14,225 nucleotides of DNA from a virus (IMGVR_UViG_2778261499_000007); one strand, 5' to 3'; positions 157-14,225 are shown, numbered from the stretch's first letter. Notes: generated by a model from the letters alone, not told the origin. Program-made: numbers and translations.

Positions 157-956
157 TTGTTGATCTCCGTGATGTCATCGAGCAACATGTTGGCCTTATC
201 GATCATCGTTTCGTGGAACTCATTCGACACAACAGACTTATCACCTGCGGCAATCTTTCCAGCAGCCTCTCCCTGTGCATATTCCCCGCGATGCTTAGCC
301 CTGGTGGATTTCGTAGCAGCGTTGCCAGCGTTGCTACCCTCTTTAGCACTGTTAACAGCACCCTTTTGCTGTGTTTTGTTCACCTTCTTACTGTTAGTGA
401 AAACTCCGGCATTTTCGACCATCTTCACCTTGAAGGTGCGGAATTCTTCAAAAGTGCAATCAATAGTGATGCAGTCGCCAGAGGAAGAGCTACGCTTAAC
501 TTCACATTTCGTCATGATGAAGTTCTCAAGAAGTCCGGCATCTTCACTAACCAGGCTAACCAGCTGGCGCTTGTCTCTCATTTCCATAAGTGCCTGAACA
601 GCGGCAGCAGGGCGCATAGATTCACGGGGATTATCTGGATCAGTGTTCCGGTCGATGTAGTTCTCTTTCCGGATGATATGAGGGGAAGAGGTGATAATAC
701 CCGTAAAGCTGACAGATTTATCTTTAATGACGGCATGGTCTGACATGGTGGTGCCATCCTCGACCGCATAGCTCGATTTCTCGACAGGGAACGAATAGCT
801 GACATCAGAGATTGAGTCAAAGAAGATAGCCACGTTATCGGTATAGTTGAAGCCATCCATTATATTTTTGTTTTGTGAATATCCCCCACACATAACAGTG
901 AATGCAGGAGATCTCGACTCAGCTTGTTTTGCAGCTGTCAGAGCATCACTAGCCAT
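153..956 (-). CDS. Putative Dit-like / baseplate-type tail protein (267 aa from Met19 of the track ORF)
   Basis: GGAGG lies 10 nt upstream of the ATG at 956. The track start at 1010 is a TTG with no SD. SFPVEKSSYAVEDGTTMSDHAVIKDKSVSFTGIITS, followed by AAVQALMEMRDKRQLVSLVSEDAGLLENFIMTKCEVKR, matches the PvEdG..isDh...P..l...G pattern plus the later L..l....lv.lvt....y.nm.i....v.r pattern of Dit-like N-terminal domains (from memory). The C-terminal third is low complexity. Confidence 0.45.
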   Translation of the reverse strand: MASDALTAAKQAESRSPAFTVMCGGYSQNKNIMDGFNYTDNVAIFFDSISDVSYSFPVEKSSYAVEDGTTMSDHAVIKDKSVSFTGIITSSPHIIRKENYIDRNTDPDNPRESMRPAAAVQALMEMRDKRQLVSLVSEDAGLLENFIMTKCEVKRSSSSGDCITIDCTFEEFRTFKVKMVENAGVFTNSKKVNKTQQKGAVNSAKEGSNAGNAATKSTRAKHRGEYAQGEAAGKIAAGDKSVVSNEFHETMIDKANMLLDDITEINK

Positions 957-1150
957 ATTAAACATGCCTCCAAATTGGTCCACTTCATGGATTTGGCTAA
1001 ACTCGTGCAAGTAGCACTCATCCCGAGGGTGTTAAAGCCAAACCTGCAAAAGATGCAGGCAAAATAGAACTTATCGTTGCCCTGCTTAAAATCTGCAGAA
1101 AATACAGGGCAGTTATTCGTTAGAATCGCTTATAGCTCTTCCCGAGAGCG

Positions 1151-1402
1151 TTATTTTGCAAAACGATTATGGGCATTCAGGGCTTTTTTGCGGTCCTGGG
1201 CTTGTTTGCGTGCAATAAAATGTTCGAAAGTCTCGGCCCAGGTGCATTTATTATATTCACGGTATTTATGCATAGCCTGGCGGCTAACGTCATAGCAGGC
1301 GGCAAATGTGGAGATACGCAGGAATTCCGGCAGATCCTCGTCATCGATATGGATAATATCAAAAGGCACGTCATCACGGTCGCCGTATAAAACAATTTTC
1401 AT
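1151..1402 (-). CDS. Small HTH DNA-binding protein (83 aa)
   Basis: GAGGTG lies 6 nt upstream of the ATG at 1402. HTH-like stretch: ISTFAACYDVSRQAMHKY. The C-terminus is basic. The gene lies just outside the left inverted repeat. Confidence 0.55.
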   Translation of the reverse strand: MKIVLYGDRDDVPFDIIHIDDEDLPEFLRISTFAACYDVSRQAMHKYREYNKCTWAETFEHFIARKQAQDRKKALNAHNRFAK

Positions 1403-1436
1403 AAAAGACACCTCAAAAACTTAAGACGGGGATTAT

Positions 1437-1480
1437 GAGTCCTTCCAGGACCTTAGCTAAAGCTAAGCCCTTTGGGTCTG
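1437..1480 (-). repeat. Inverted repeat IR-L (44 nt, reverse complement of 4293-4336 with 5 mismatches)
   Basis: The minus strand reads cagacccaaagggcttagctttagctaaggtcctggaaggactc. It contains the palindrome CTTAGCT-TT-AGCTAAG and the hairpin GTCCT-GGA-AGGAC. Confidence 0.9.
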
Positions 1481-1487
1481 TGGATAA
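1479..1487 (-). promoter_or_regulatory. Perfect DnaA box (TTATCCACA on the minus strand)
   Basis: The plus strand reads tgtggataa, a 9/9 match to the E. coli consensus. It abuts IR-L. Confidence 0.4.
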
Positions 1488-1488
1488 T

Positions 1489-1541
1489 AAAAAAGGGAAG
1501 AGGGAAAGACCTATCCCCGATCTCTCACCTCTTCCCTTTGC
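1489..1541 (-). terminator. Rho-independent terminator after the capsid gene (possibly bidirectional)
   Basis: 10-bp stem AGGGAAGAGG (1494-1503) / CCTCTTCCCT (1528-1537). On the minus strand it is followed by TTTTT. It starts 3 nt after the capsid stop. Confidence 0.7.
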
Positions 1542-1543
1542 TT

Positions 1544-2578
1544 TTATTTAGCCTTGGCAGCGGCGGCGGTGTTTTTAACACTCACTTTAACCACAACTTC
1601 AGGCATCATGTTCATGAAAGCATAAGAGGATTCAACGAAGATTTCGCGTTTGCCTCTGGACTCTTCCATATACATGAAAGCTTCACGTGCAGCGCCGTTT
1701 GCCAGCTTCAGGTTGCGAGCGCAAGGGCCGAAAAATTGAGTATAAACGCCCACCATATCGCCTAACGCATGCGGCTGGAACTGTGGGACTAGATAAGCAG
1801 TATTCTCTGGCAGACTATCCATTTGCACCACACGCAGGGCTAAGCCCGGAATGCGGAAGGTCGGGAAGCCCGGCAGAATATCCTCAGGGAACATCAGACC
1901 TTTATCGGTAATATTCTGATTGCCGAACAACAGCACTTTACGGAGCAGTTCATCAGTCTGAATTGCAGCAAAGAGCTCAGCACGGCAGAACAGGGTGAAA
2001 CCACGCAGAGCGCGAACGACACCACGCTGTTTAACCTTGCTCAGTGCAACCAGGTCCTGCAGCTGTTTAAGGATATCTTGAGCTAGATCCACTTCTGAAG
2101 TGGTTTGCTGTGCGCCCAGCAGTTCGCACACATTCAGTTCTTTACCCTTGGTGAGGATAATTTTGTTCTCAAAGAGAGCAAGCTGGCGTGCTTCTTCATG
2201 GGTCTGGCGTAAGCCTTCGCCCAGTTGAATAACACGACGAGCGGTTACAGACTCTAAATTCTCTTCGGAATCTTTGCCAGGAACGCGGATACCCTGCCAG
2301 TCAGAAGGATAAATAGCACTTGATGCGGCAGTGAACGCCATATCACCCGTGCCCGTTTCACGCTCATCTGCGGTAATGGTCGCCATCTGTTCACCGTAGC
2401 GCGGATACTGACCGAAAGCGGTTTGTTTCACCTGCCGAACTTTGTCATATTCAAATTTGAAGGTATTGCACAGAGCAGTAGTGTTGAAGATATCCATTGC
2501 TGAAATAATCTGATTATCCAGCGGGATGTCTTTAATCAGACCACACAGATCGCGAACTTCGAATTCTTTCTTAGCCAT
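1544..2578 (-). CDS. Major capsid protein, lambda gpE-like (344 aa)
   Basis: AGGAGG lies 6 nt upstream of the ATG at 2578. The track start at 2584 is a TTG. Size, position directly after a gpD-like gene, and overall sequence character fit the phage major capsid protein E family. It is followed by a strong terminator. Confidence 0.7.
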   Translation of the reverse strand: MAKKEFEVRDLCGLIKDIPLDNQIISAMDIFNTTALCNTFKFEYDKVRQVKQTAFGQYPRYGEQMATITADERETGTGDMAFTAASSAIYPSDWQGIRVPGKDSEENLESVTARRVIQLGEGLRQTHEEARQLALFENKIILTKGKELNVCELLGAQQTTSEVDLAQDILKQLQDLVALSKVKQRGVVRALRGFTLFCRAELFAAIQTDELLRKVLLFGNQNITDKGLMFPEDILPGFPTFRIPGLALRVVQMDSLPENTAYLVPQFQPHALGDMVGVYTQFFGPCARNLKLANGAAREAFMYMEESRGKREIFVESSYAFMNMMPEVVVKVSVKNTAAAAKAK

Positions 2579-2589
2579 TTCCAACCTCC

Positions 2590-2925
2590 TTATTGTGCAA
2601 CACGCAAATCGCCATTGCTGGCAGCAATAACAGCGGCTAAGCCGTCTTTATCCACGTAGGCCGGATTGATATAACAGCCTTTGTTGGCAACAACGATAAA
2701 AGCATCACCAACCTCAGCACGTTCTACAACCAGCAGCGGAGTTTTATCGGTGTGCGTTTCTTTAACGAAGGTCTCAACCTCGCCAGCCTCAGTCACCACA
2801 ACAACAGTGCCAGCCGGAATCTCAGCTTTAACTTTGTTTTTAATTTCAACGTCGCGAATACTAAATTGCTCATCTGCGGCGTATGAAATGATGTGTCCGC
2901 GTGTGCGGATAGTCATATCTCTCAT
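2590..2925 (-). CDS. Head decoration / cement protein, lambda gpD-like (111 aa)
   Basis: AGGTGA lies 4 nt upstream of the ATG. About 110 aa with IPAGTVVVV...G..v.....a.VGDAFIVVANKGCY, typical of decoration proteins. It sits immediately upstream of the capsid gene, as in lambda D-E. Confidence 0.6.
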   Translation of the reverse strand: MRDMTIRTRGHIISYAADEQFSIRDVEIKNKVKAEIPAGTVVVVTEAGEVETFVKETHTDKTPLLVVERAEVGDAFIVVANKGCYINPAYVDKDGLAAVIAASNGDLRVAQ

Positions 2926-3410
2926 TTGATCACCTGCGATTTAAATTAACTCCCCTCAAAGAGTTCCGGTATAACCTCTCAAACCGCGACAGGCTCGGGC
3001 CGAAAAGTTATGCCGGAAATCTAAAGGGGGATTGATATAAGGAGAGGGAGATAGCCCCGCACCGTAGCCAAGCGGGGGCTATTCCACATGGGGAAACCGA
3101 CAACAGTCGGATGATAGTTCACAGTATGGGTTACGGTTACTAGAGAGCACTATCACGAAAGGCACTCCCCCGAATCAGTTCAGGCTGCGGTCACATCAGC
3201 GGGGAAATACCTTTCGGGATAGCTACCCACACAGAAAACCCGCAAAAGAAAACTGTGTGGATAACTAGCCCAATAGGAGAATTAATCGACCACTCAACGA
3301 TGATCAGGGTAGTGTTATTTATAGGGCGGCACCGCTACCTGGTCGCCTTTACTTTGGAGGAAAATATGGCAAATCAAGATCTTCTCAAATGATATTGATT
3401 CCATACTATA
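2926..3410 (-). other. About 480-nt ORF-poor, hairpin-dense leader between the SOS promoter and the decoration gene (candidate cos/packaging region or regulatory RNA)
   Basis: Stems read directly: ATAGCCCCGC/GCGGGGCTAT (3051-3081); CCGAC/GTCGG; CCACACAG/CTGTGTGG (3228-3260); TCCGG.ATAAC/GTTATACCGGA (2966-3019, 11 bp with 1 mismatch); and a nested long hairpin at about 3140-3226. There is a GC-rich quasi-symmetric block, GGGCGGCACCGCTACCTGGTCGCC, at 3324-3347. Confidence 0.4.
3256..3264 (-). promoter_or_regulatory. Perfect DnaA box (TTATCCACA on the minus strand)
   Basis: The plus strand reads tgtggataa, 9/9. It lies within the 3' arm of the CCACACAG/CTGTGTGG hairpin and its 3' flank. Confidence 0.35.
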
Positions 3411-3428
3411 CTGTATATTATATCAGTA
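3409..3428. promoter_or_regulatory. LexA operator (SOS box)
   Basis: TACTGTATATTATATCAGTA equals TACTG-N10-CAGTA with an all-A/T spacer. This is the canonical E. coli-type CTG-N10-CAG palindrome. It overlaps the -10 element of the promoter below. Confidence 0.8.
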
Positions 3429-3445
3429 TTTACTCACATTGTCAA
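3417..3445 (-). promoter_or_regulatory. Consensus sigma70 promoter firing leftward toward the decoration/capsid operon
   Basis: The minus strand reads TTGACA (3445-3440), a 17-nt spacer atgtgagtaaatactga, then TATAAT (3422-3417). Both hexamers and the spacing are perfect. Confidence 0.8.
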
Positions 3446-3775
3446 CACCTTGATTATATAAATTCTAATAATTAGCGTAGTAACGGTATTTTCAGACCTC
3501 TATCAATCCCATCAATACGTCACCCCCACCCTTTAGATGCATACATCCGACCTACTTTGTAGGCTTGGCGTACTGCCAAGGTCGCAGCTATGCGACTCCT
3601 ATCTATCACCACTTTATAAAGCTTGATAGATATCTTTTGATCAATATCAATGTTTTCCGGGTATTTACCCGGCTATAGTTCGAATCAAGGAAGGGGAGCA
3701 TTGATAGAGACACCCAAAGGGGTGACTGAAAGTCACCTGGCATAGCCAGTGAAAGCACCCAACCGAACAAACAAA

Positions 3776-3790
3776 TCAACTTCTCGCAAA
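3776..3790 (+). promoter_or_regulatory. Conserved leader motif copy 1 (TCAACTTCTCGCAAA), 26 nt before an ATG
   Basis: Identical 15-mer to 4367-4381, at the same distance from the start codon. Confidence 0.6.
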
Positions 3791-3801
3791 AGGTGATAGT
3801 T

Positions 3802-3924
3802 ATGGGTATCAAGAACAGTGCCAGCGCATGGCAAAAGGCCAGGTTTCATCACCCACACATTGTTAAGGCAATTGAGGTGGTTGGAGTTTTAGCCCTGATG
3901 TTAGCTCTGTGTGTGGAGGTGTGA
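3802..3924 (+). CDS. Small protein, 40 aa, with a hydrophobic C-terminal segment
   Basis: AGGTGA SD upstream. Translation: MGIKNSASAWQKARFHHPHIVKAIEVVGVLALMLALCVEV. It is below the ORF-track size cut-off and was translated by hand. Confidence 0.4.
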   Translation: MGIKNSASAWQKARFHHPHIVKAIEVVGVLALMLALCVEV

Positions 3925-3925
3925 G

Positions 3926-4006
3926 ATGGGCAAAGGAGGCAAAGCATTTTTAATAGGTCTGGCTATCCTGGATGTTCTACTAATCATGATTAAGCGGAGT
4001 TTATGA
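3926..4006 (+). CDS. Small membrane peptide, 26 aa
   Basis: GGAGG lies 6 nt upstream. The start is 1 nt after the previous stop. Translation: MGKGGKAFLIGLAILDVLLIMIKRSL. Confidence 0.4.
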   Translation: MGKGGKAFLIGLAILDVLLIMIKRSL

Positions 4007-4025
4007 ACAGCATTGAGAGGAGTTT

Positions 4026-4286
4026 ATGACGGGGGCTAAAGATATCAGGAGACTGAGGGAAGAGCTGATAGCTGAAATTAAAGCTAAGGCAAAGCAAATG
4101 GAGATAGCCGCACAAATGGATGTAGCGGAACAGATGTACAAGATGGTTGAGGAGGGAACGCCACGACAGGTTATCGCTAAAACCTTCGGTGTGGGGATCG
4201 CCACCGTGCACAGAAGGCTGAAAGCCTATGCCGACTACCACAATATCGAGAGAAAGGAGGATGGGAGATTTAAGAAGAATAAATAG
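4026..4286 (+). CDS. Stand-alone recombinase-type HTH protein (86 aa; coiled helix plus a Hin/resolvase-like HTH, no catalytic domain)
   Basis: GTPRQVIAKTFGVGIATVHRRL aligns with Hin GHPRQQLAIIFGIGVSTLYRYF (10/22 identical, from memory). The N-terminal 40 aa is a charged helix. No serine-recombinase catalytic domain is present anywhere in the element. Confidence 0.55.
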   Translation: MTGAKDIRRLREELIAEIKAKAKQMEIAAQMDVAEQMYKMVEEGTPRQVIAKTFGVGIATVHRRLKAYADYHNIERKEDGRFKKNK

Positions 4287-4292
4287 TAGGAA

Positions 4293-4336
4293 CAGGCCCG
4301 AAGGGCTTAGCTTTAGCTAAGGTCCTATCAGGACTC
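4293..4336 (+). repeat. Inverted repeat IR-R (44 nt, partner of 1437-1480)
   Basis: Sequence: caggcccgaagggcttagctttagctaaggtcctatcaggactc. It starts 7 nt after the HTH gene stop. Confidence 0.9.
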
Positions 4337-4366
4337 CCACACAGTCCAACAGGTTATTAACTAAAT

Positions 4367-4381
4367 TCAACTTCTCGCAAA
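4367..4381 (+). promoter_or_regulatory. Conserved leader motif copy 2 (TCAACTTCTCGCAAA), 26 nt before an ATG
   Basis: See 3776-3790. Confidence 0.6.
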
Positions 4382-4392
4382 GGGGTACCACT

Positions 4393-5103
4393 ATGTTTAA
4401 AGGTCTTGTTGTTACGCTATTGGCTTGCATTGTATTTGGTCCATGGGTGTTAGTAATTGCTTTACCTATATTGCTGATCATGAGCTTAGGGAATGATATT
4501 AAAAAGCTGCATGCACAATATAAGGAGCATCCTGGAGCAGTCATAACAAGTCTGGTTATAGTCGCGGGGCTTATTGGCTGGGTCTACTTCTCTCTTCCCA
4601 CAGGAAATACAACTGCAAATGTAGAAGAGGCGAACGCACAGCATGAAGAAGTGGTTAACGTCGCCGACCTTACATGGGAGGACAGGGTAAAAGCATATAA
4701 ATATATTTATGGTGTGCTAGATTGCGATCTCTCTAAAGATATAGGATGCACAGATAAATACCAGATTCACGCCTGGCTGTGGAATCATGCAGAAAAAGGT
4801 GCTTGCAACCAGATTAAAGTGGCGGTTAACAGTGGGGCACCTACTGGGAAAAATAAAGATGTTCTGACGGTATGGTGCAAGGATGTAAAAGGCAATGATC
4901 GTTGGCTACAGATGCGCCACATGGACGGTGTAAGCATAGAAACTACACGAACGGCTCGATGGTATAACGGTGAACTCGTTCACGAAGCATGGCAGAATAA
5001 CGCCTGGATCACTGAGGGAACACTCCTGAATGTTGATATGGAAGCATTGAAGATGCTTAATGAGATGTACGGTGAAGCCGTAGAAACCTCTCCGATGAAA
5101 TAA
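4393..5103 (+). CDS. Membrane protein (236 aa) with N-terminal TM helices and a Cys/Trp-rich extracytoplasmic domain; function unknown
   Basis: Hydrophobic stretches: LVVTLLACIVFGPWVLVIALPILLIM and VITSLVIVAGLIGWVYF. Soluble C-terminal domain. Followed by a strong terminator. Confidence 0.6.
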   Translation: MFKGLVVTLLACIVFGPWVLVIALPILLIMSLGNDIKKLHAQYKEHPGAVITSLVIVAGLIGWVYFSLPTGNTTANVEEANAQHEEVVNVADLTWEDRVKAYKYIYGVLDCDLSKDIGCTDKYQIHAWLWNHAEKGACNQIKVAVNSGAPTGKNKDVLTVWCKDVKGNDRWLQMRHMDGVSIETTRTARWYNGELVHEAWQNNAWITEGTLLNVDMEALKMLNEMYGEAVETSPMK

Positions 5104-5113
5104 CCACACCTAC

Positions 5114-5140
5114 CAGGGGCCATCACGGCCCCTTTTTATT
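5114..5140 (+). terminator. Rho-independent terminator
   Basis: AGGGGCC-atcac-GGCCCCT followed by TTTTTATTT. Confidence 0.8.
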
Positions 5141-5200
5141 TATCCCCTATTTACACTCCTTTCAGTCCTGATCATCACTCCCTACCCCCTGATCAATTAA

Positions 5201-5251
5201 CCCCTATTTAAGGGGTATTTAATGGGTATTTAATGCCTATTTATTGATTTA
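5201..5251. repeat. Phased 11-bp repeats (SSSTATTTAWK, 4-5 copies)
   Basis: TATTTA starts at 5205, 5216, 5227 and 5238, an exact 11-bp period. There is a degenerate copy at about 5247 and an isolated copy at 5148. Confidence 0.7.
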
Positions 5252-6486
5252 ATCCGTTTTATGCCACAACCGCCCGGTTGACAGAGTAAGAGAGAGGGTG
5301 TAACCCTTTTTCGTAATACTAATAAAATCAATAGCTTAGCTCAATTGGCCTTTTCTCTGTTTTTGTCAAATTTAACATACCCTAAAAAACTGCAAAATCT
5401 GGCTGCAAGATTATCTGCAGCTGGATTTCTTACACCTCAATTTGTGGTATCACCCTGACTAGTTTGTGCATAAAATGAACAGTTTTTAACATTTCCTCTT
5501 CACCTGGTAACCACACAAAAAGCTAAAAACGAGGCACAGATAATCTTAGAGGCCTGTTTTCTTGTTATCACTCTGGAAACGTCGTAGAAGTGATTTTGAT
5601 GAAAGATGACCTACCCTATTACACCCCCATTTTTTGTTATCACAATTGCATCCTGTGCGGTGTATGGCTGTGTGCTGAAAGCGGTCTTGGGTGTGGGTGT
5701 CAGAAATATCCATTAGCGGTATTAATACCCGTCAGATGTTCGTCTGAGGTGCCAGGCAGGCGCTCCCCCACCTCCCTTTTTTCTTCTAACAATTCTCAAA
5801 TATCACACCACTGCCGACCACGTTACTACTCTGTTAATTCTTAAGCTTTGCTGTATGTTGTGCACATTATTTATTCAGGTGCGTGTACGTAAATTCTGGG
5901 CCTCCTTATCATGATTTTTAAATCAGATTTTGTAGTTCGGTTTCTTAGTGTAGATAAGATCTATTATGTTAAATGCAATTTTCCCAACCCTTCAAATCAA
6001 TGACTTACATGTAAGCATGCACTAACACCCCACACAGCACATTAGACGTATAGATGGCTATATCCCACATTTTTGATTGTTTTGTAGTCATTCCCCTGAT
6101 CATTTAACCAGTATAGTTTGTTCTTTGCAGACCACAAAATCGGAATTTACATCTGATTAACATAATCTGTTAGCATGATCACTATTACCCACACAACAAT
6201 AACCCCATGCAAGACTCTTCAGGCAATTTATCGGCGTGTTGGTGTGAACAGTCTTTCATGTTCTTTATGTTTTCATTGTCCTGTGTGAGGGAAGGATGGA
6301 CTGCCCCAGGGGCCACACTTATGATGCCCGGTCAACATAGCTATTGATAAAATCAACGGGTGTTGATCTGCATATTTCCCACACATGAGAGGAAATCAGA
6401 GCAAAGAGAGAGGAGAGAGGTTTGCTAGTCAAAATAGGTCAATTGACGGCTAATACAGAGTAAAAAATCAGATGCAATCACTCCCC

Positions 6487-6673
6487 ACCTGTTGGGATTT
6501 CCCGCACCTGTATAAGAATACAGTCATACTTTCCCGTTATACGGTCATACACATGATGGAATAACCTGTTGGAATTTCCTACAGGTTTAACCATACACAG
6601 GAGCTAACCTGTTGGAATTTCCTACTACTACCTGTCGGTATTTCCCACAGGTACCTGTTGGAATTTCCCACAC
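6487..6673 (+). repeat. Iteron array (5 x 21 bp, ACCTGTTGGAATTTCCCACAS); candidate replication origin
   Basis: Copies start at 6487, 6564, 6607, 6630 and 6653. The last three have a 23-bp period. Each contains an internal ACCTGT...ACAGGT dyad. An AT-rich flank (6674-6708) contains GATCTATTCTCTT on the minus strand (6683-6695), 1 mismatch from the oriC 13-mer GATCTnTTnTTTT. Confidence 0.75.
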
Positions 6674-6797
6674 TAATAGATAAAGAGAATAGATCAATAA
6701 AAAGAACTCCCCCTATAATCCCCCAACAAGGGGGGATGGGGAGGGATCAGAGAGTGGGGAAGGTTTTCTAAGGGAAAAGCTTAACCCACAAATGAAA

Positions 6798-7086
6798 GCC
6801 TAAAGAGCATTAGCGACTCTTTAGGCAATCTGTGTGTGGGGTGACAATGTATTCCATACATGACACGTCACCCAATTGTGTGTGGGGTGCTTACAGCACT
6901 TAAGCCTCTGGCTTAACCCTTCGGGCCTCTGTGTGGGAAGCGTAGTGCGATAGCACGTAGCTTTATAATGTGGAGTCCGGATAAGAGACTTCTGTTTCCA
7001 ATCCGGACCGTTTAAGCGAGGGATTCCGCTCGCCCGTGTATGCACACACGTAATAGGACGCTCAGAAATCGATTTTAAGGCCCAAA
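6798..7086 (+). other. Cluster of GC-rich hairpins (candidate structured ncRNA or single-strand initiation signal)
   Basis: GCCTAAAGAG/CTCTTTAGGC (6798-6826); GGGTGAC..GTCACCC with nested ATGTAT/ATACAT (6839-6873); CCC-TTCG-GGG context (6917-6925); GTCCGGAT/ATCCGGAC (6975-7008); GCGAG/CTCGC (7016-7033); AGGCCC/GGGCCT (7069-7086). TGTGTGTGGGGTG occurs twice (6831, 6877). Confidence 0.35.
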
Positions 7087-7231
7087 ACGGGGCCTACAGC
7101 AACCTAAACCATACTCCATAGTGCAATTGCATTGCCTGATGCTTAAATCGCGTTGTAGGGCATCTCATGAGGTTTGAGTTTAACACCCTCCAAAGTTTTA
7201 ACAAAAAGTGCTCTCCCTCCATTGTGGGCCA

Positions 7232-7424: not shown

Positions 7425-7574
7425 GTGGAAATTACTGATGCAATAGCGATCATCAACCTGGCTGTACTGTGGTGCGGTGTTGCCTACATAGCCGGAGTAA
7501 CTGCAATCGACAATCTCGAAGAAAAAATGATAGATAAATACAAAAAGATTGTTGACAATTTGACGAATGTCTGA
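7425..7574 (+). CDS. Small single-TM peptide (49 aa, GTG start)
   Basis: GGAGG lies 5 nt upstream of the GTG. Translation: VEITDAIAIINLAVLWCGVAYIAGVTAIDNLEEKMIDKYKKIVDNLTNV. Not in the ORF track; translated by hand. Confidence 0.4.
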   Translation: MEITDAIAIINLAVLWCGVAYIAGVTAIDNLEEKMIDKYKKIVDNLTNV

Positions 7575-7580
7575 TAAAAT
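7552..7580 (+). promoter_or_regulatory. Promoter P3 (TTGACA-17-TAAAAT)
   Basis: Read directly. It lies inside the 3' end of the 49-aa ORF. Confidence 0.55.
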
Positions 7581-7630
7581 ATAAAGCATAGGGTAATTCT
7601 CATCATAGTGAATTTCCTTAAACAAAAATG

Positions 7631-7915: not shown

Positions 7916-7939
7916 TAAATAATCTTGGAGGATCATATT

Positions 7940-8326
7940 ATGGCAAATAACGATGAAAATTTTACTCCCTTTTTTAAACGTTTCATCAAATACACTTTTA
8001 AAAATCCGATTGCAAAAACTGCAACCAATAAAGAAAGATTTCACTTAAATGTGTTGGAGGTAACAATTTATGGTGAAATGGTAAGTTATTCTTTTAAGGA
8101 GGGTGAAGAAATAATTATCTCAGAGCTCTCGACGCAGACATTAGCAGACGATTATGATGTTACAGAGAAAACAGTAAGGTCGGCTATCAAAACATTAGAG
8201 GCTGCAGGTCTGATAAACGTTAAACGAGAACAGGGCAAATCGAATATCTACGAATTGCTAATTACCCCTGATCAGCTTGGCAAGATGTGCGATGAGCAGG
8301 GTATTAGAGAATATTTTATATATTAA
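7940..8326 (+). CDS. Winged-helix DNA-binding protein, short paralog of the Rep-like protein (128 aa)
   Basis: GGAGG lies 8 nt upstream of the ATG at 7940. The track start at 7925 is a TTG. It aligns along its whole length with the N-terminal 130 aa of the next protein (FTP.F..FI.Y.F..P.A....NK...ERF.L...E..IYG.MV...F.....I.ISE...LA.......VSAIK.LE.AGLI......G.SN.Y.LL.TPDQL..MC.E.G). Confidence 0.65.
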   Translation: MANNDENFTPFFKRFIKYTFKNPIAKTATNKERFHLNVLEVTIYGEMVSYSFKEGEEIIISELSTQTLADDYDVTEKTVRSAIKTLEAAGLINVKREQGKSNIYELLITPDQLGKMCDEQGIREYFIY

Positions 8327-8337
8327 TGGGGGGAACT

Positions 8338-9258
8338 ATGGCAGGAAATAAACTGGGGGCACCTTTTACCCCCTCTTTCGATTTCTTTATTCAGTATGAT
8401 TTTGATAAACCAGTAGCAACAACAATTTCTAATAAAAAGACTGGAACAGTTAAAGAGCGCTTCTATTTAACAGACTTTGAAATGTTGATTTATGGAAAAA
8501 TGGTGGGATTTCATTTTAACGGTGAGGGAATTTATATTTCAGAGCAAAAACTGGCAACTCAACTCAGAAAGGATCGCGGGAAAATAGTAAGCGCTATTAA
8601 ATCTCTGGAAAATGCCGGGCTTATTTCTAAAGATAGCCGGAAAGGCATGTCTAATAATTACAAATTGCTGAAAACCCCTGATCAATTGTTGGATATGTGC
8701 ATTGAGAAGGGCGTAAATATTCCAGAAGGCATCTTAGAGACTTTCGGAAAGACTGCCGCTAAAGTAGAACAGCCTCAGGAAGCCCCAAAACAAGCCACAC
8801 AGCAAGCTAAAAAGGCTAAAGTAGTGCAATTGCCTACCCAAGACACTAAAGCGCCTCAAATTAACGCTGTTAGTGACAAGCCACGCCGGGGCCGTCCTGT
8901 GAAAGATGTCACCGATGGAGGCTGGATCGTCCTGGGTGAGAGTGAGGCTAAAGGCATAATGCGATCACTGTGGGAAAGCAAATACAAAGATTTAAACAAA
9001 CGTCGCCCGATCCTTTTGTCAAAGATTCAGGAGGATTTTTACACCGCAGAAGAGGTAAGCCAACATAAAGGGAAAAGAGAGGGTGAAATCTGGAAACCGG
9101 AAGAATACTGGCATTTAACCAGACCTGTGTTTATTTTTGCAAATAAGCTTATTGGGATGGGATTTGAAATATTGTTGGATAAAACCTGCGGAGATTATCC
9201 CGAAATATTGTGGAGAAATGTTAGAAAAAATAAAAAAGGCATTTTAGAGTTTAAATAA
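8338..9258 (+). CDS. Putative replication initiator (306 aa): N-terminal winged helix plus a PRRGRP basic linker plus a C-terminal domain
   Basis: GGGGGG lies 4 nt upstream of the ATG at 8338, and the paralog alignment starts at MAGNK. The wHTH pattern is typical of plasmid/phage initiators. The iterons lie about 1.3 kb upstream. Confidence 0.55.
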   Translation: MAGNKLGAPFTPSFDFFIQYDFDKPVATTISNKKTGTVKERFYLTDFEMLIYGKMVGFHFNGEGIYISEQKLATQLRKDRGKIVSAIKSLENAGLISKDSRKGMSNNYKLLKTPDQLLDMCIEKGVNIPEGILETFGKTAAKVEQPQEAPKQATQQAKKAKVVQLPTQDTKAPQINAVSDKPRRGRPVKDVTDGGWIVLGESEAKGIMRSLWESKYKDLNKRRPILLSKIQEDFYTAEEVSQHKGKREGEIWKPEEYWHLTRPVFIFANKLIGMGFEILLDKTCGDYPEILWRNVRKNKKGILEFK

Positions 9259-13293: not shown

Positions 13294-13395
13294 TGTCCAC
13301 TCTGTGGATTTGAGTTCTACTCAAACCTGCATAGCAGGCACTGATATTGTGATCAAAATCAATAAGTTAGCCTGACCGGACAAACTCCAGGCAAG

Positions 13396-14148: not shown

Positions 14149-14225
14149 CCCCTCAGAGTGGATAGCTGCCAGTGTGGCGTAATTCAGGCCGCTATAGTGC
14201 TTTCCGTCATCCCAGCCAACCGCTA
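14149..14225. repeat. Terminal overlap copy 2 (identical to 1-77)
   Basis: Same comparison as for copy 1. Confidence 0.9.

Follow-up and report, generated by a model that had tools for sequence, protein, structure and literature searches.

Inverted repeats around the capsid-gene segment of a phage-related Escherichia coli plasmid are probably independently acquired copies of a dispersed three-hairpin mini-element

Several kinds of small repeated or invertible DNA have been described in bacteria and their phages. Rickettsia palindromic elements (RPEs) insert in frame into protein genes and are translated (PMC10969869), while in T4-type phages small repeated stem-loop cassettes, the promoter early stem-loops (PeSLs), are found at the boundaries of variable genes and are tied to mosaicism (PMC2839356, PMC4122927). 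In the rV5-like phage PhiTE, a pseudo-ToxI locus expands and contracts and exchanges with a plasmid (PMC3475682), and inversion systems of the Hin type require a full serine recombinase and an enhancer (PMC3798978). Here we analysed a pair of inverted arms in the viral sequence IMGVR_UViG_2778261499_000007, whose whole length of 14,225 nt we call the window. The arms enclose a 2.8-kb segment with the capsid gene and regulatory genes, and had originally been predicted, from their geometry, to be the crossover sites of a serine invertase or else a conserved RNA control element. We find that they are probably two independently acquired copies of a dispersed, non-autonomous mini-hairpin element that resembles repetitive extragenic palindromic (REP) sequences and miniature inverted-repeat transposable elements, or MITEs. 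The best-supported reading of their inverted arrangement is that it is incidental, one copy standing in the leftward and the other in the rightward operon.

The arms form the longest inverted repeat of the window, and this repeat is far above chance expectation. A repeat search paired positions 1437-1481 with 4292-4336, that is, 45 nt of which 40 are complementary (89%), with a spacing of 2810 nt between the two arms and 26 identical bases in a row common to both. By comparison, when the window was shuffled 100 times, the longest exact inverted match was 14.3 on average and never above 18. The repeat had been predicted at 39 of 44 positions and is real, as are the other details given for it: the 26-nt core AAGGGCTTAGCT-TT-AGCTAAGGTCCT has the 12+2+12 layout, its half-sites being symmetric at 9 of 12 positions and at 7 of the inner 7, and the mismatches fall in the GTCCT-NNN-AGGAC loop (three), in the GAA/AAA loop (one) and at the outer GCCC/GGGC pair (one). 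It is also correct that both arms have an equal sense relative to the local gene direction, and that a gene encoding only a helix-turn-helix (HTH) protein stands beside the right arm, an open reading frame (ORF) of 86 amino acids (aa) that matches HTH_7 only and stops 5-6 nt ahead of the arm. The right arm, with the sequence ACAG GCCC-GAA-GGGC / CTTAGCT-TT-AGCTAAG / GTCCT-ATC-AGGAC TCCCAC, occupies the 106-nt spacer that separates this HTH gene from a cargo gene. The left arm lies directly 3' of the terminator hairpin of the capsid gene and 5' of an 83/86-aa gene. A promoter and terminator scan found no terminator-like T-run at either arm, and we rejected the arms as terminators on that ground.

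The window is a circle of 14,148 bp, closed by an exact 77-nt terminal direct repeat (1-77 = 14149-14225), and is 91-95% identical to E. coli plasmids of 13.2-13.7 kb. A search for related sequences yielded five in PLSDB and seven among complete RefSeq genomes, in every case on a plasmid and never on a chromosome. We compared the occupancy of the two arm positions in 23 plasmids, namely the window and 22 relatives: nine database plasmids (L001-L009), three from metagenomes (L020, L022, L024) and ten retrieved through an exact look-up of the 86-aa protein (L031-L040). When the spacers between the HTH and cargo genes were aligned, the right-arm position (site A) proved to be a clean 49-bp insertion/deletion (indel) with ACAG on either side, filled in 5 of the 23 plasmids (the window, L002, L033, L037 and L039) and empty in 18. 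Alignment of the spacers behind the capsid terminator gave a similarly clean indel at the left-arm position (site B), here of 52 bp with ATCC on either side; it is filled in seven plasmids (the window, L006, L031, L034, L035, L038 and L039), the L006 copy having a nested 33-bp insert, and empty in 16. In the same alignment the terminator hairpin itself is kept in all plasmids, whereas the element has been added behind the hairpin in only some. Both arms are present together in only two plasmids, the window and L039, against about 1.5 that independent filling would predict, and all four combinations of filled and empty sites were found. The two arms are separately acquired copies, without association between the sites. 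Furthermore, all 22 relatives are collinear with the window, the segment 1500-4280 standing on the same strand as its flanks, L039 included. Because the arm pair is usually absent, is not co-inherited and was never found in the flipped state, it is not an inversion switch.

Both arms are members of a larger family, whose elements consist of three consecutive short hairpins over about 46-52 bp. The first hairpin is usually (G)CCC-GAA-GGG(C), the second has a 7-bp stem and the third a 5-bp stem, and CCCACAC often stands directly 3' of the element. A structural scan detected four strict triple hairpins in the window, compared to an expectation of 0.035 from shuffles. Nine distinct copies were used to build a covariance model, which recovers further members with other stems; flank tests bring two extra copies (sites E and F), and the window has at least six family copies in all (Table 1). 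The type-I copy about 210 nt from the iterons reads GGCCC-GAA-GGG / TTAAGCC-AGA-GGCTTAA / GTGCT-GTA-AGCAC, with CCCACACA at both flanks; it shows compensatory changes relative to the arms, and at its position L003 and L005 have no element, while other plasmids have different variants there. The type-II member upstream of the HTH gene (II_reg), with the sequence CCC-AAA-GGG / GTGAC-TGAAA-GTCAC / CTGGC-ATA-GCCAG, is a 48-bp indel that 12 of the 23 plasmids have and 11 lack, and has a DNA fold z of -4.2. At site E, the element CCTGC-TAT-GCAGG / TTTGAGT-AGA-ACTCAAA / TCCAC-AGA-GTGGA (DNA fold z = -4.0) forms a 51-bp indel with the flanks ATCAG/ATTAG, filled in 13 plasmids and empty in 7, L009 having a different variant. 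Site F is empty in 11 plasmids and filled by two forms: in L022 an uninterrupted 46-bp element stands between TTTG and TTTG, while in the window the middle hairpin is split by a nested insert of about 35 bp (about 1000-1034), giving an 80-bp nested form that is also seen in L006, L031, L032 and L036.

Family members also enter genes. At site C, a near-identical copy in L007, L008 and L034 is a 51-bp in-frame insert, antisense, near the 3' end of a 129-aa gene, which it extends to 144 aa. Relatives of the type-II member, with the pattern CCC-GAA-GGG / GTGAC...GTCAC / CTGGC...GCCAG, occur as 51-bp in-frame inserts that lengthen a 61-aa protein to 78 aa (the place termed II_61aa), and at this same place L009 has a type-I-like insert with a product of 82 aa. 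The copies are thus found in intergenic DNA, in the non-coding region close to the origin and in frame inside genes; those of the non-coding region occur in both orientations, and antisense copies stand at site C, at site E with respect to the tape-measure gene, and after the capsid stop codon in L006. Clean filled/empty indels of 48-52 bp were seen at sites A, B, C, E, F, II_reg and II_61aa, so that at least seven sites differ among the 23 plasmids, some having the element and others a clean empty site, a presence/absence polymorphism like that of MITEs. The flanking direct repeats include ACAG, ATCC and TTTG (4 bp), ATTAG (5 bp), CCCACACACA and, in phages, GACCTACAGG; they measure only 1-2 bp at sites C and II_reg, and 10 bp at the site nc2 and the phage site.

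A blastn search of 5,426 complete E. coli genomes returned 0 chromosomal copies, with matches on plasmids only, and neither the exact nor the degenerate element patterns had a match in IMG/VR. A pattern scan of genome contigs gave only four hairpin-like chance matches in unrelated metagenome-assembled genomes; a scan of metagenomes brought three further plasmids and one contig of the rV5-like kind, besides chance matches.

The original prediction had named covariation of the stems in related elements as a check, and the stems do indeed covary. When nine distinct type-I copies were aligned with MAFFT, 99.3% of the cells were paired and 10 pairs were changed on both sides; this pairing was matched by 0 of 500 shuffles, and sliding the partners by 1-3 columns lowered it to 19-62%. 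Across 15 distinct copies helices 2 and 3 are 100% paired, with compensatory changes in 10 of their 12 pairs and zero one-sided (G·U) changes in about 180 cells, by a test that is blind to RNA versus single-stranded DNA. The first hairpin is CCC/GGG in most copies and has other 5-bp stems elsewhere, its compensatory variants being CCGAC-GTA-GTCGG, CCCTC-CGAA-GAGGG, CCTGC-TAT-GCAGG and CCTTC-GAA-GAAGG. The unpaired centre of the second hairpin is 2, 3, 4 or 5 nt long across members. Most loops have 3 nt and are often GNA, a particularly stable DNA hairpin loop. The RNA folding energies of the arms are ordinary (z = -1.2 and -0.3), and folds with DNA parameters are modestly better than those of shuffles (z from -1.9 to -4.2). 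DNA hairpins fit these data better than an RNA-only structure, because G·U pairs are absent, the loops are mostly of 3 nt and often GNA, and copies stand in both orientations. With Rfam, CRISPR repeat families included, the whole window gave 0 matches at the gathering threshold and positions 900-7100 gave 0 at E <= 1, and no tRNA or tmRNA was found. A likeness of the third type-II hairpin (CTGCC...GGCAG) to a type I-F CRISPR repeat was dropped, as no model matched.

The element is not confined to plasmids. The 49-nt element matches a 42-nt copy, 83% identical, in about 27 Vequintavirus records, where the copy lies in a 2.4-kb non-coding region between converging gene clusters and has two compensatory changes in the second hairpin relative to the arm. 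A covariance-model search of a 136-kb rV5-like genome found one strong copy and one weak two-hairpin relative only. As in the plasmids, the phage site is polymorphic: it is empty in ECP2303 and slur12, and filled, between two copies of GACCTACAGG, in rV5_ev147 and EduardKellenberger, while JohannBauhin and phita32 have a different 34-bp insert and JeffSchatz has both inserts. Phage JEP1 (MT740314 94607-94643) has in addition a nested 33-bp insert with TAGC flanks. This insert, ATCGAGCATAGCTCTCAGCCCGAGAGCGT, is identical in JEP1 and in the site-B copy of L006 (23175-23207), occurs in no other phage record, and looks like a second, even smaller element family. The element is very probably an indel-polymorphic mini-element of the REP/MITE kind that belongs to the plasmid family and occurs in Vequintavirus phages as well.

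Plasmid and phage non-coding regions have other sequences in common. A second motif, AACAATTCTCAAATATC, joins window positions 5781-5804 to LR597647 104374-104397 (24 nt, 96%); in rV5 it stands 44 nt downstream of the triple-hairpin element, and it may be a shared cis-acting signal. The non-coding stretch 6700-7000 (minus strand), beside the iterons (6485-6671), is a string of different hairpin modules set apart by the motif CCCACACACAG. These modules are present or absent between plasmids, with CCCACACACAG as the junction, and CCCACACACAG recurs in the rV5 non-coding region. We also noted that about 18 records named 'Campylobacter phage' (MG0656xx) are by sequence rV5-like E. coli phage genomes, and are probably mislabelled or contaminant.

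If the arms were the 12+2+12 crossover sites of a Din-type (Hin/Gin/Cin) switch, a serine invertase of a helper or the host would flip the 2.8-kb capsid-plus-regulatory segment between them. The inverted orientation, the 26-nt quasi-palindromic core and the adjacent HTH_7-type gene are all real, but this switch is extremely improbable on the evidence above. Scored with the published Din consensus and site table (PMC3241671, Table 3), the core reaches 3 of 15 on the plus strand and 4 of 15 on the minus strand, compared to 12 for hixL, 11 for gixL, 10 for cixL and 11 for pixL. The stretch originally read as an asymmetric 2-bp core is the loop of a hairpin; other members of the family have loops of 2-5 nt there and stems that change compensatorily, and a fixed core is therefore absent. 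Two independent indels that share a plasmid in 2 of 23 cases, with 0 of 22 relatives inverted and the double carrier L039 among them, do not behave as a recombination pair. The 86-aa protein lacks a catalytic domain and is present beside empty sites, and no recombinase domain was found in the window. Inversion might instead occur incidentally, without a dedicated system, through RecA-dependent homologous exchange over the 26-bp perfect match within the 40/45 identity, since about 26 bp is near the minimum length usually quoted for such exchange. This we consider distinctly unlikely, however: both double carriers are in the standard orientation, the window was assembled as a single circle, and the events would be rare and would part the capsid operon from the downstream tail genes.

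The hairpins might also act in the polycistronic mRNA, protecting its 3' end, marking a processing site, or serving as a nut-like or protein-binding signal, and so tune the flanking genes. REP-like hairpins stabilise upstream mRNA, both arms and most intra-operon copies are in the sense orientation, and the helices covary. This part of the original prediction held, in that the mismatches between the arms reflect conserved hairpins, as the covariation in 15 distinct copies confirms for helices 2 and 3. The proposed control site after the first gene block of each operon did not, because the element is absent there in most relatives and present elsewhere, coding and antisense positions included. 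The element is also dispensable, its sites being empty in most close relatives with otherwise identical flanks. Antisense copies, the zero count of G·U pairs, the ordinary folding energies of the arms, the lack of an Rfam match even at E <= 1 and of a T-run at either arm all argue against a functional RNA, and the left arm stands after rather than before the capsid terminator, which is unfit for a nut site; we therefore regard an RNA element as unlikely. A dyad-symmetric operator, bound as duplex by a plasmid or phage protein such as the HTH_7 or a Rep-like winged-helix protein, would agree with the fairly conserved palindrome of the second hairpin (TTWRGCY...RGCYWAA), with the several HTH proteins encoded and with the occurrence of CCCACA within the iteron sequence too. 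Yet compensatory half-site changes and a 2-5-nt spacer destroy any fixed protein-DNA register, and copies lie inside coding regions and at polymorphic positions, making an operator very improbable. Separately, we asked if copy orientation is tied to the replication origin near the iterons; the idea did not fit, as one replichore has mixed strands.

We return to the dispersed mini-element and how it may spread. Hairpin-dependent copy-and-paste at the DNA level is plausible, although we would stop short of calling it probable: new copies would arise by template switching, by microhomology-guided insertion or through an enzyme supplied in trans by a phage, and would be lost by slippage between the short flanking direct repeats. 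We favour this route because the hairpins are perfect Watson-Crick palindromes with small loops and short, variable flanking direct repeats, and also because inserts nest inside hairpins and copies occur in both orientations and inside genes. Homologous exchange among the mosaic plasmids would redistribute filled and empty alleles as well, and effects on expression, for example through intercistronic RNA hairpins, would be secondary. A bolder proposal, which we hold to be rather doubtful, is an ultra-small (33-52 bp) class of hairpin elements that would be moving actively between Vequintavirus and E. coli plasmids resembling its satellites or degenerate relatives, mobilised by an activity that recognises hairpins and is provided in trans, probably by the phage. 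Such elements would target intergenic DNA and one another's hairpins, and would also enter genes in frame.

A number of observations count against a mobile mini-element. With lengths of 1 to 10 bp, the direct repeats at the flanks are not classical target-site duplications of fixed length, and neither a de novo insertion event nor a mobilising enzyme was seen. The polarity of the indels, insertion versus precise deletion, is inferred and not rooted on a tree, and the plasmids recombine heavily, so that some of the filled and empty patterns may have spread by homologous exchange rather than by new insertion. Perfect palindromy could stem from hairpin-templated repair and not from selection for structure. 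Finally, about 8 of 11 orientable sites are sense to the nearest gene, which is not significant and leaves room for selection at the RNA level.

Table 1. Positions of the repeat-family members and of other features discussed, in window coordinates
Feature	Coordinates	Strand	Evidence
Right arm, type-I triple hairpin, site A	4292..4340	+	covariance-model match, 70.1 bits
Left arm, type-I triple hairpin, site B	1433..1484	-	covariance-model match, 67.4 bits
Type-I copy, long non-coding region, ~210 nt from iterons	6882..6930	-	covariance-model match, 63.2 bits
Type-II member, non-coding leader upstream of HTH gene (II_reg)	3708..3755	+	covariance-model match, 20.3 bits
Site E member, 2 nt past tape-measure stop codon, antisense to tape-measure gene	13295..13345	-	flank test
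Site F member, between 83/86-aa gene and Dit-like gene	975..1064	-	flank test
Terminator-like hairpin and T-run 3' of capsid gene	1484..1547	-	repeat search and alignment
86-aa protein, resolvase-type HTH only	4026..4286	+	Pfam HTH_7, 27.5 bits, residues 30-65; no Resolvase match
Leftward capsid-operon promoter TTGACA-17-TATAAT, 12/12, TG extension	3408..3445	-	promoter scan

The plasmids that carry the element form a widespread, non-mobilizable and apparently undescribed family of about 13.5 kb. The exact 86-aa protein is indexed in 655 blocks of public assemblies, mostly contigs of 10-20 kb. Their gene products include a major capsid protein, a tape-measure protein, a Dit-like tail protein and Rep-like winged-helix proteins. 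The capsid and tape-measure proteins have their best phage relatives in Vequintavirinae (rV5-like myoviruses), with an identity of only about 25%; neither a terminase nor a portal gene was seen in the plasmid family, and a capsid-protein scan of IMG/VR gave no match. The family may be a satellite of Vequintavirus. We found no description of these plasmids, of these elements or of an rV5/Vequintavirus satellite in the literature. The 86-aa protein is present with site A filled or empty, and an identical protein stands beside empty sites in L031, L032, L034-L036, L038 and L040; no recombinase or transposase catalytic domain was found in the 20 window ORFs scanned, and no toxin gene was found.

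An identity profile shows the plasmids to be strongly mosaic. The cargo gene 3' of the HTH gene (4393-5103) is swappable, with at least three or four unrelated alleles (236, 233/228, 195 and 173-176 aa), and the leader before it is conserved, the swap starting right at the ATG. For the 236-aa allele, neither Pfam, PHROG nor PADLOC gave a match. We rejected a link between this allele and the site-A element, since the allele accompanies an empty site in L024 and the element accompanies a 195-aa allele in L037 and L039. A LexA-box-like CTG-N10-CAG (3410-3425) overlaps the capsid-operon promoter, which matches the sigma70 consensus perfectly and is not part of the repeat family; a related promoter-like sequence is found inverted at 7550-7591, ahead of the Rep-like genes. 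Two adjacent Rep-like winged-helix genes (7925-8326 and 8326-9258) share a 68-nt repeat (8234-8301 vs 8644-8711, 71%), which suggests that the pair arose from partial gene duplication. L006 (NZ_CP043822.1, 39,610 bp) is a head-to-tail plasmid trimer with one decayed unit (frameshifts, truncated genes), either a real multimer or an assembly artefact. In L031 (79 kb) and L032 (30 kb) the plasmid is cointegrated in a larger one, the tape-measure gene being cut by Tn3-family/bla or aph insertions, and microcin B17 genes adjoin in L031.

To conclude, a tempting annotation of a phase-variable capsid and regulatory segment is removed, and in its place stands a testable observation: a three-hairpin unit of about 50 bp, below the size of typical MITEs, is gained and lost at many positions in a plasmid family. 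Public E. coli assemblies contain this family in their hundreds, and rV5-like virulent phages share the element with it. If its movement were active, it would point to an unknown hairpin-directed insertion mechanism and could serve as a marker for phages and plasmids meeting in one cell and, if true, as a record of phage-satellite co-infection.

The element differs from REP sequences and bacterial interspersed mosaic elements (BIMEs), from MITEs including RPEs, and from PeSLs in its size, three-hairpin architecture, habitat and lack of a cognate enzyme. With the hix/gix/cix/pix sites, the arm copy shares a 26-nt quasi-palindrome with a 2-nt centre and two inverted copies about 2.8 kb apart; however, it fails the consensus, its centre varies in length, no recombinase or inversion was found in the window and its 22 relatives, respectively, and the arms are not co-inherited. 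Pseudo-ToxI of PhiTE, too, places short structured repeats between genes of an rV5-like phage, but ToxI is made of 36-nt tandem direct repeats that form a pseudoknot antitoxin, and the element has no similarity to it in sequence or architecture. As for PeSLs, both are small repeated stem-loop units in phage-related genomes at variable-gene boundaries. A PeSL, however, combines a sigma70 promoter with a terminator hairpin and is a homologous recombination site for module shuffling, whereas the element has neither promoter nor T-run, is a stand-alone indel and enters coding sequence. REP/BIME sequences are, like the element, short (35-50 nt), hairpin-forming, dispersed, non-coding, variable in copy number and often intra-operonic, with stems kept by compensatory change. 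In contrast to them, the element has no sequence similarity to E. coli REP, is absent from the chromosomes searched, has three tandem hairpins instead of one imperfect palindrome, resides on plasmids and a virulent phage and also in frame in genes, and has no RAYT-type transposase in sight. MITEs and RPEs are, as it is, small non-autonomous insertions with short direct-repeat flanks, polymorphic between close relatives. Yet at 46-52 bp the element is several-fold smaller than typical MITEs (about 100-400 bp) and RPEs (about 150 bp), it is built of three internal palindromes whose ends are not mutual inverted copies (no terminal inverted repeats), its flanking repeats are of no fixed length, and the plasmid has no related insertion sequence or transposase. 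With RPEs it shares the in-frame entry into protein genes, here the 61-aa and 129-aa genes, and these copies illustrate how a protein may be lengthened without being destroyed.

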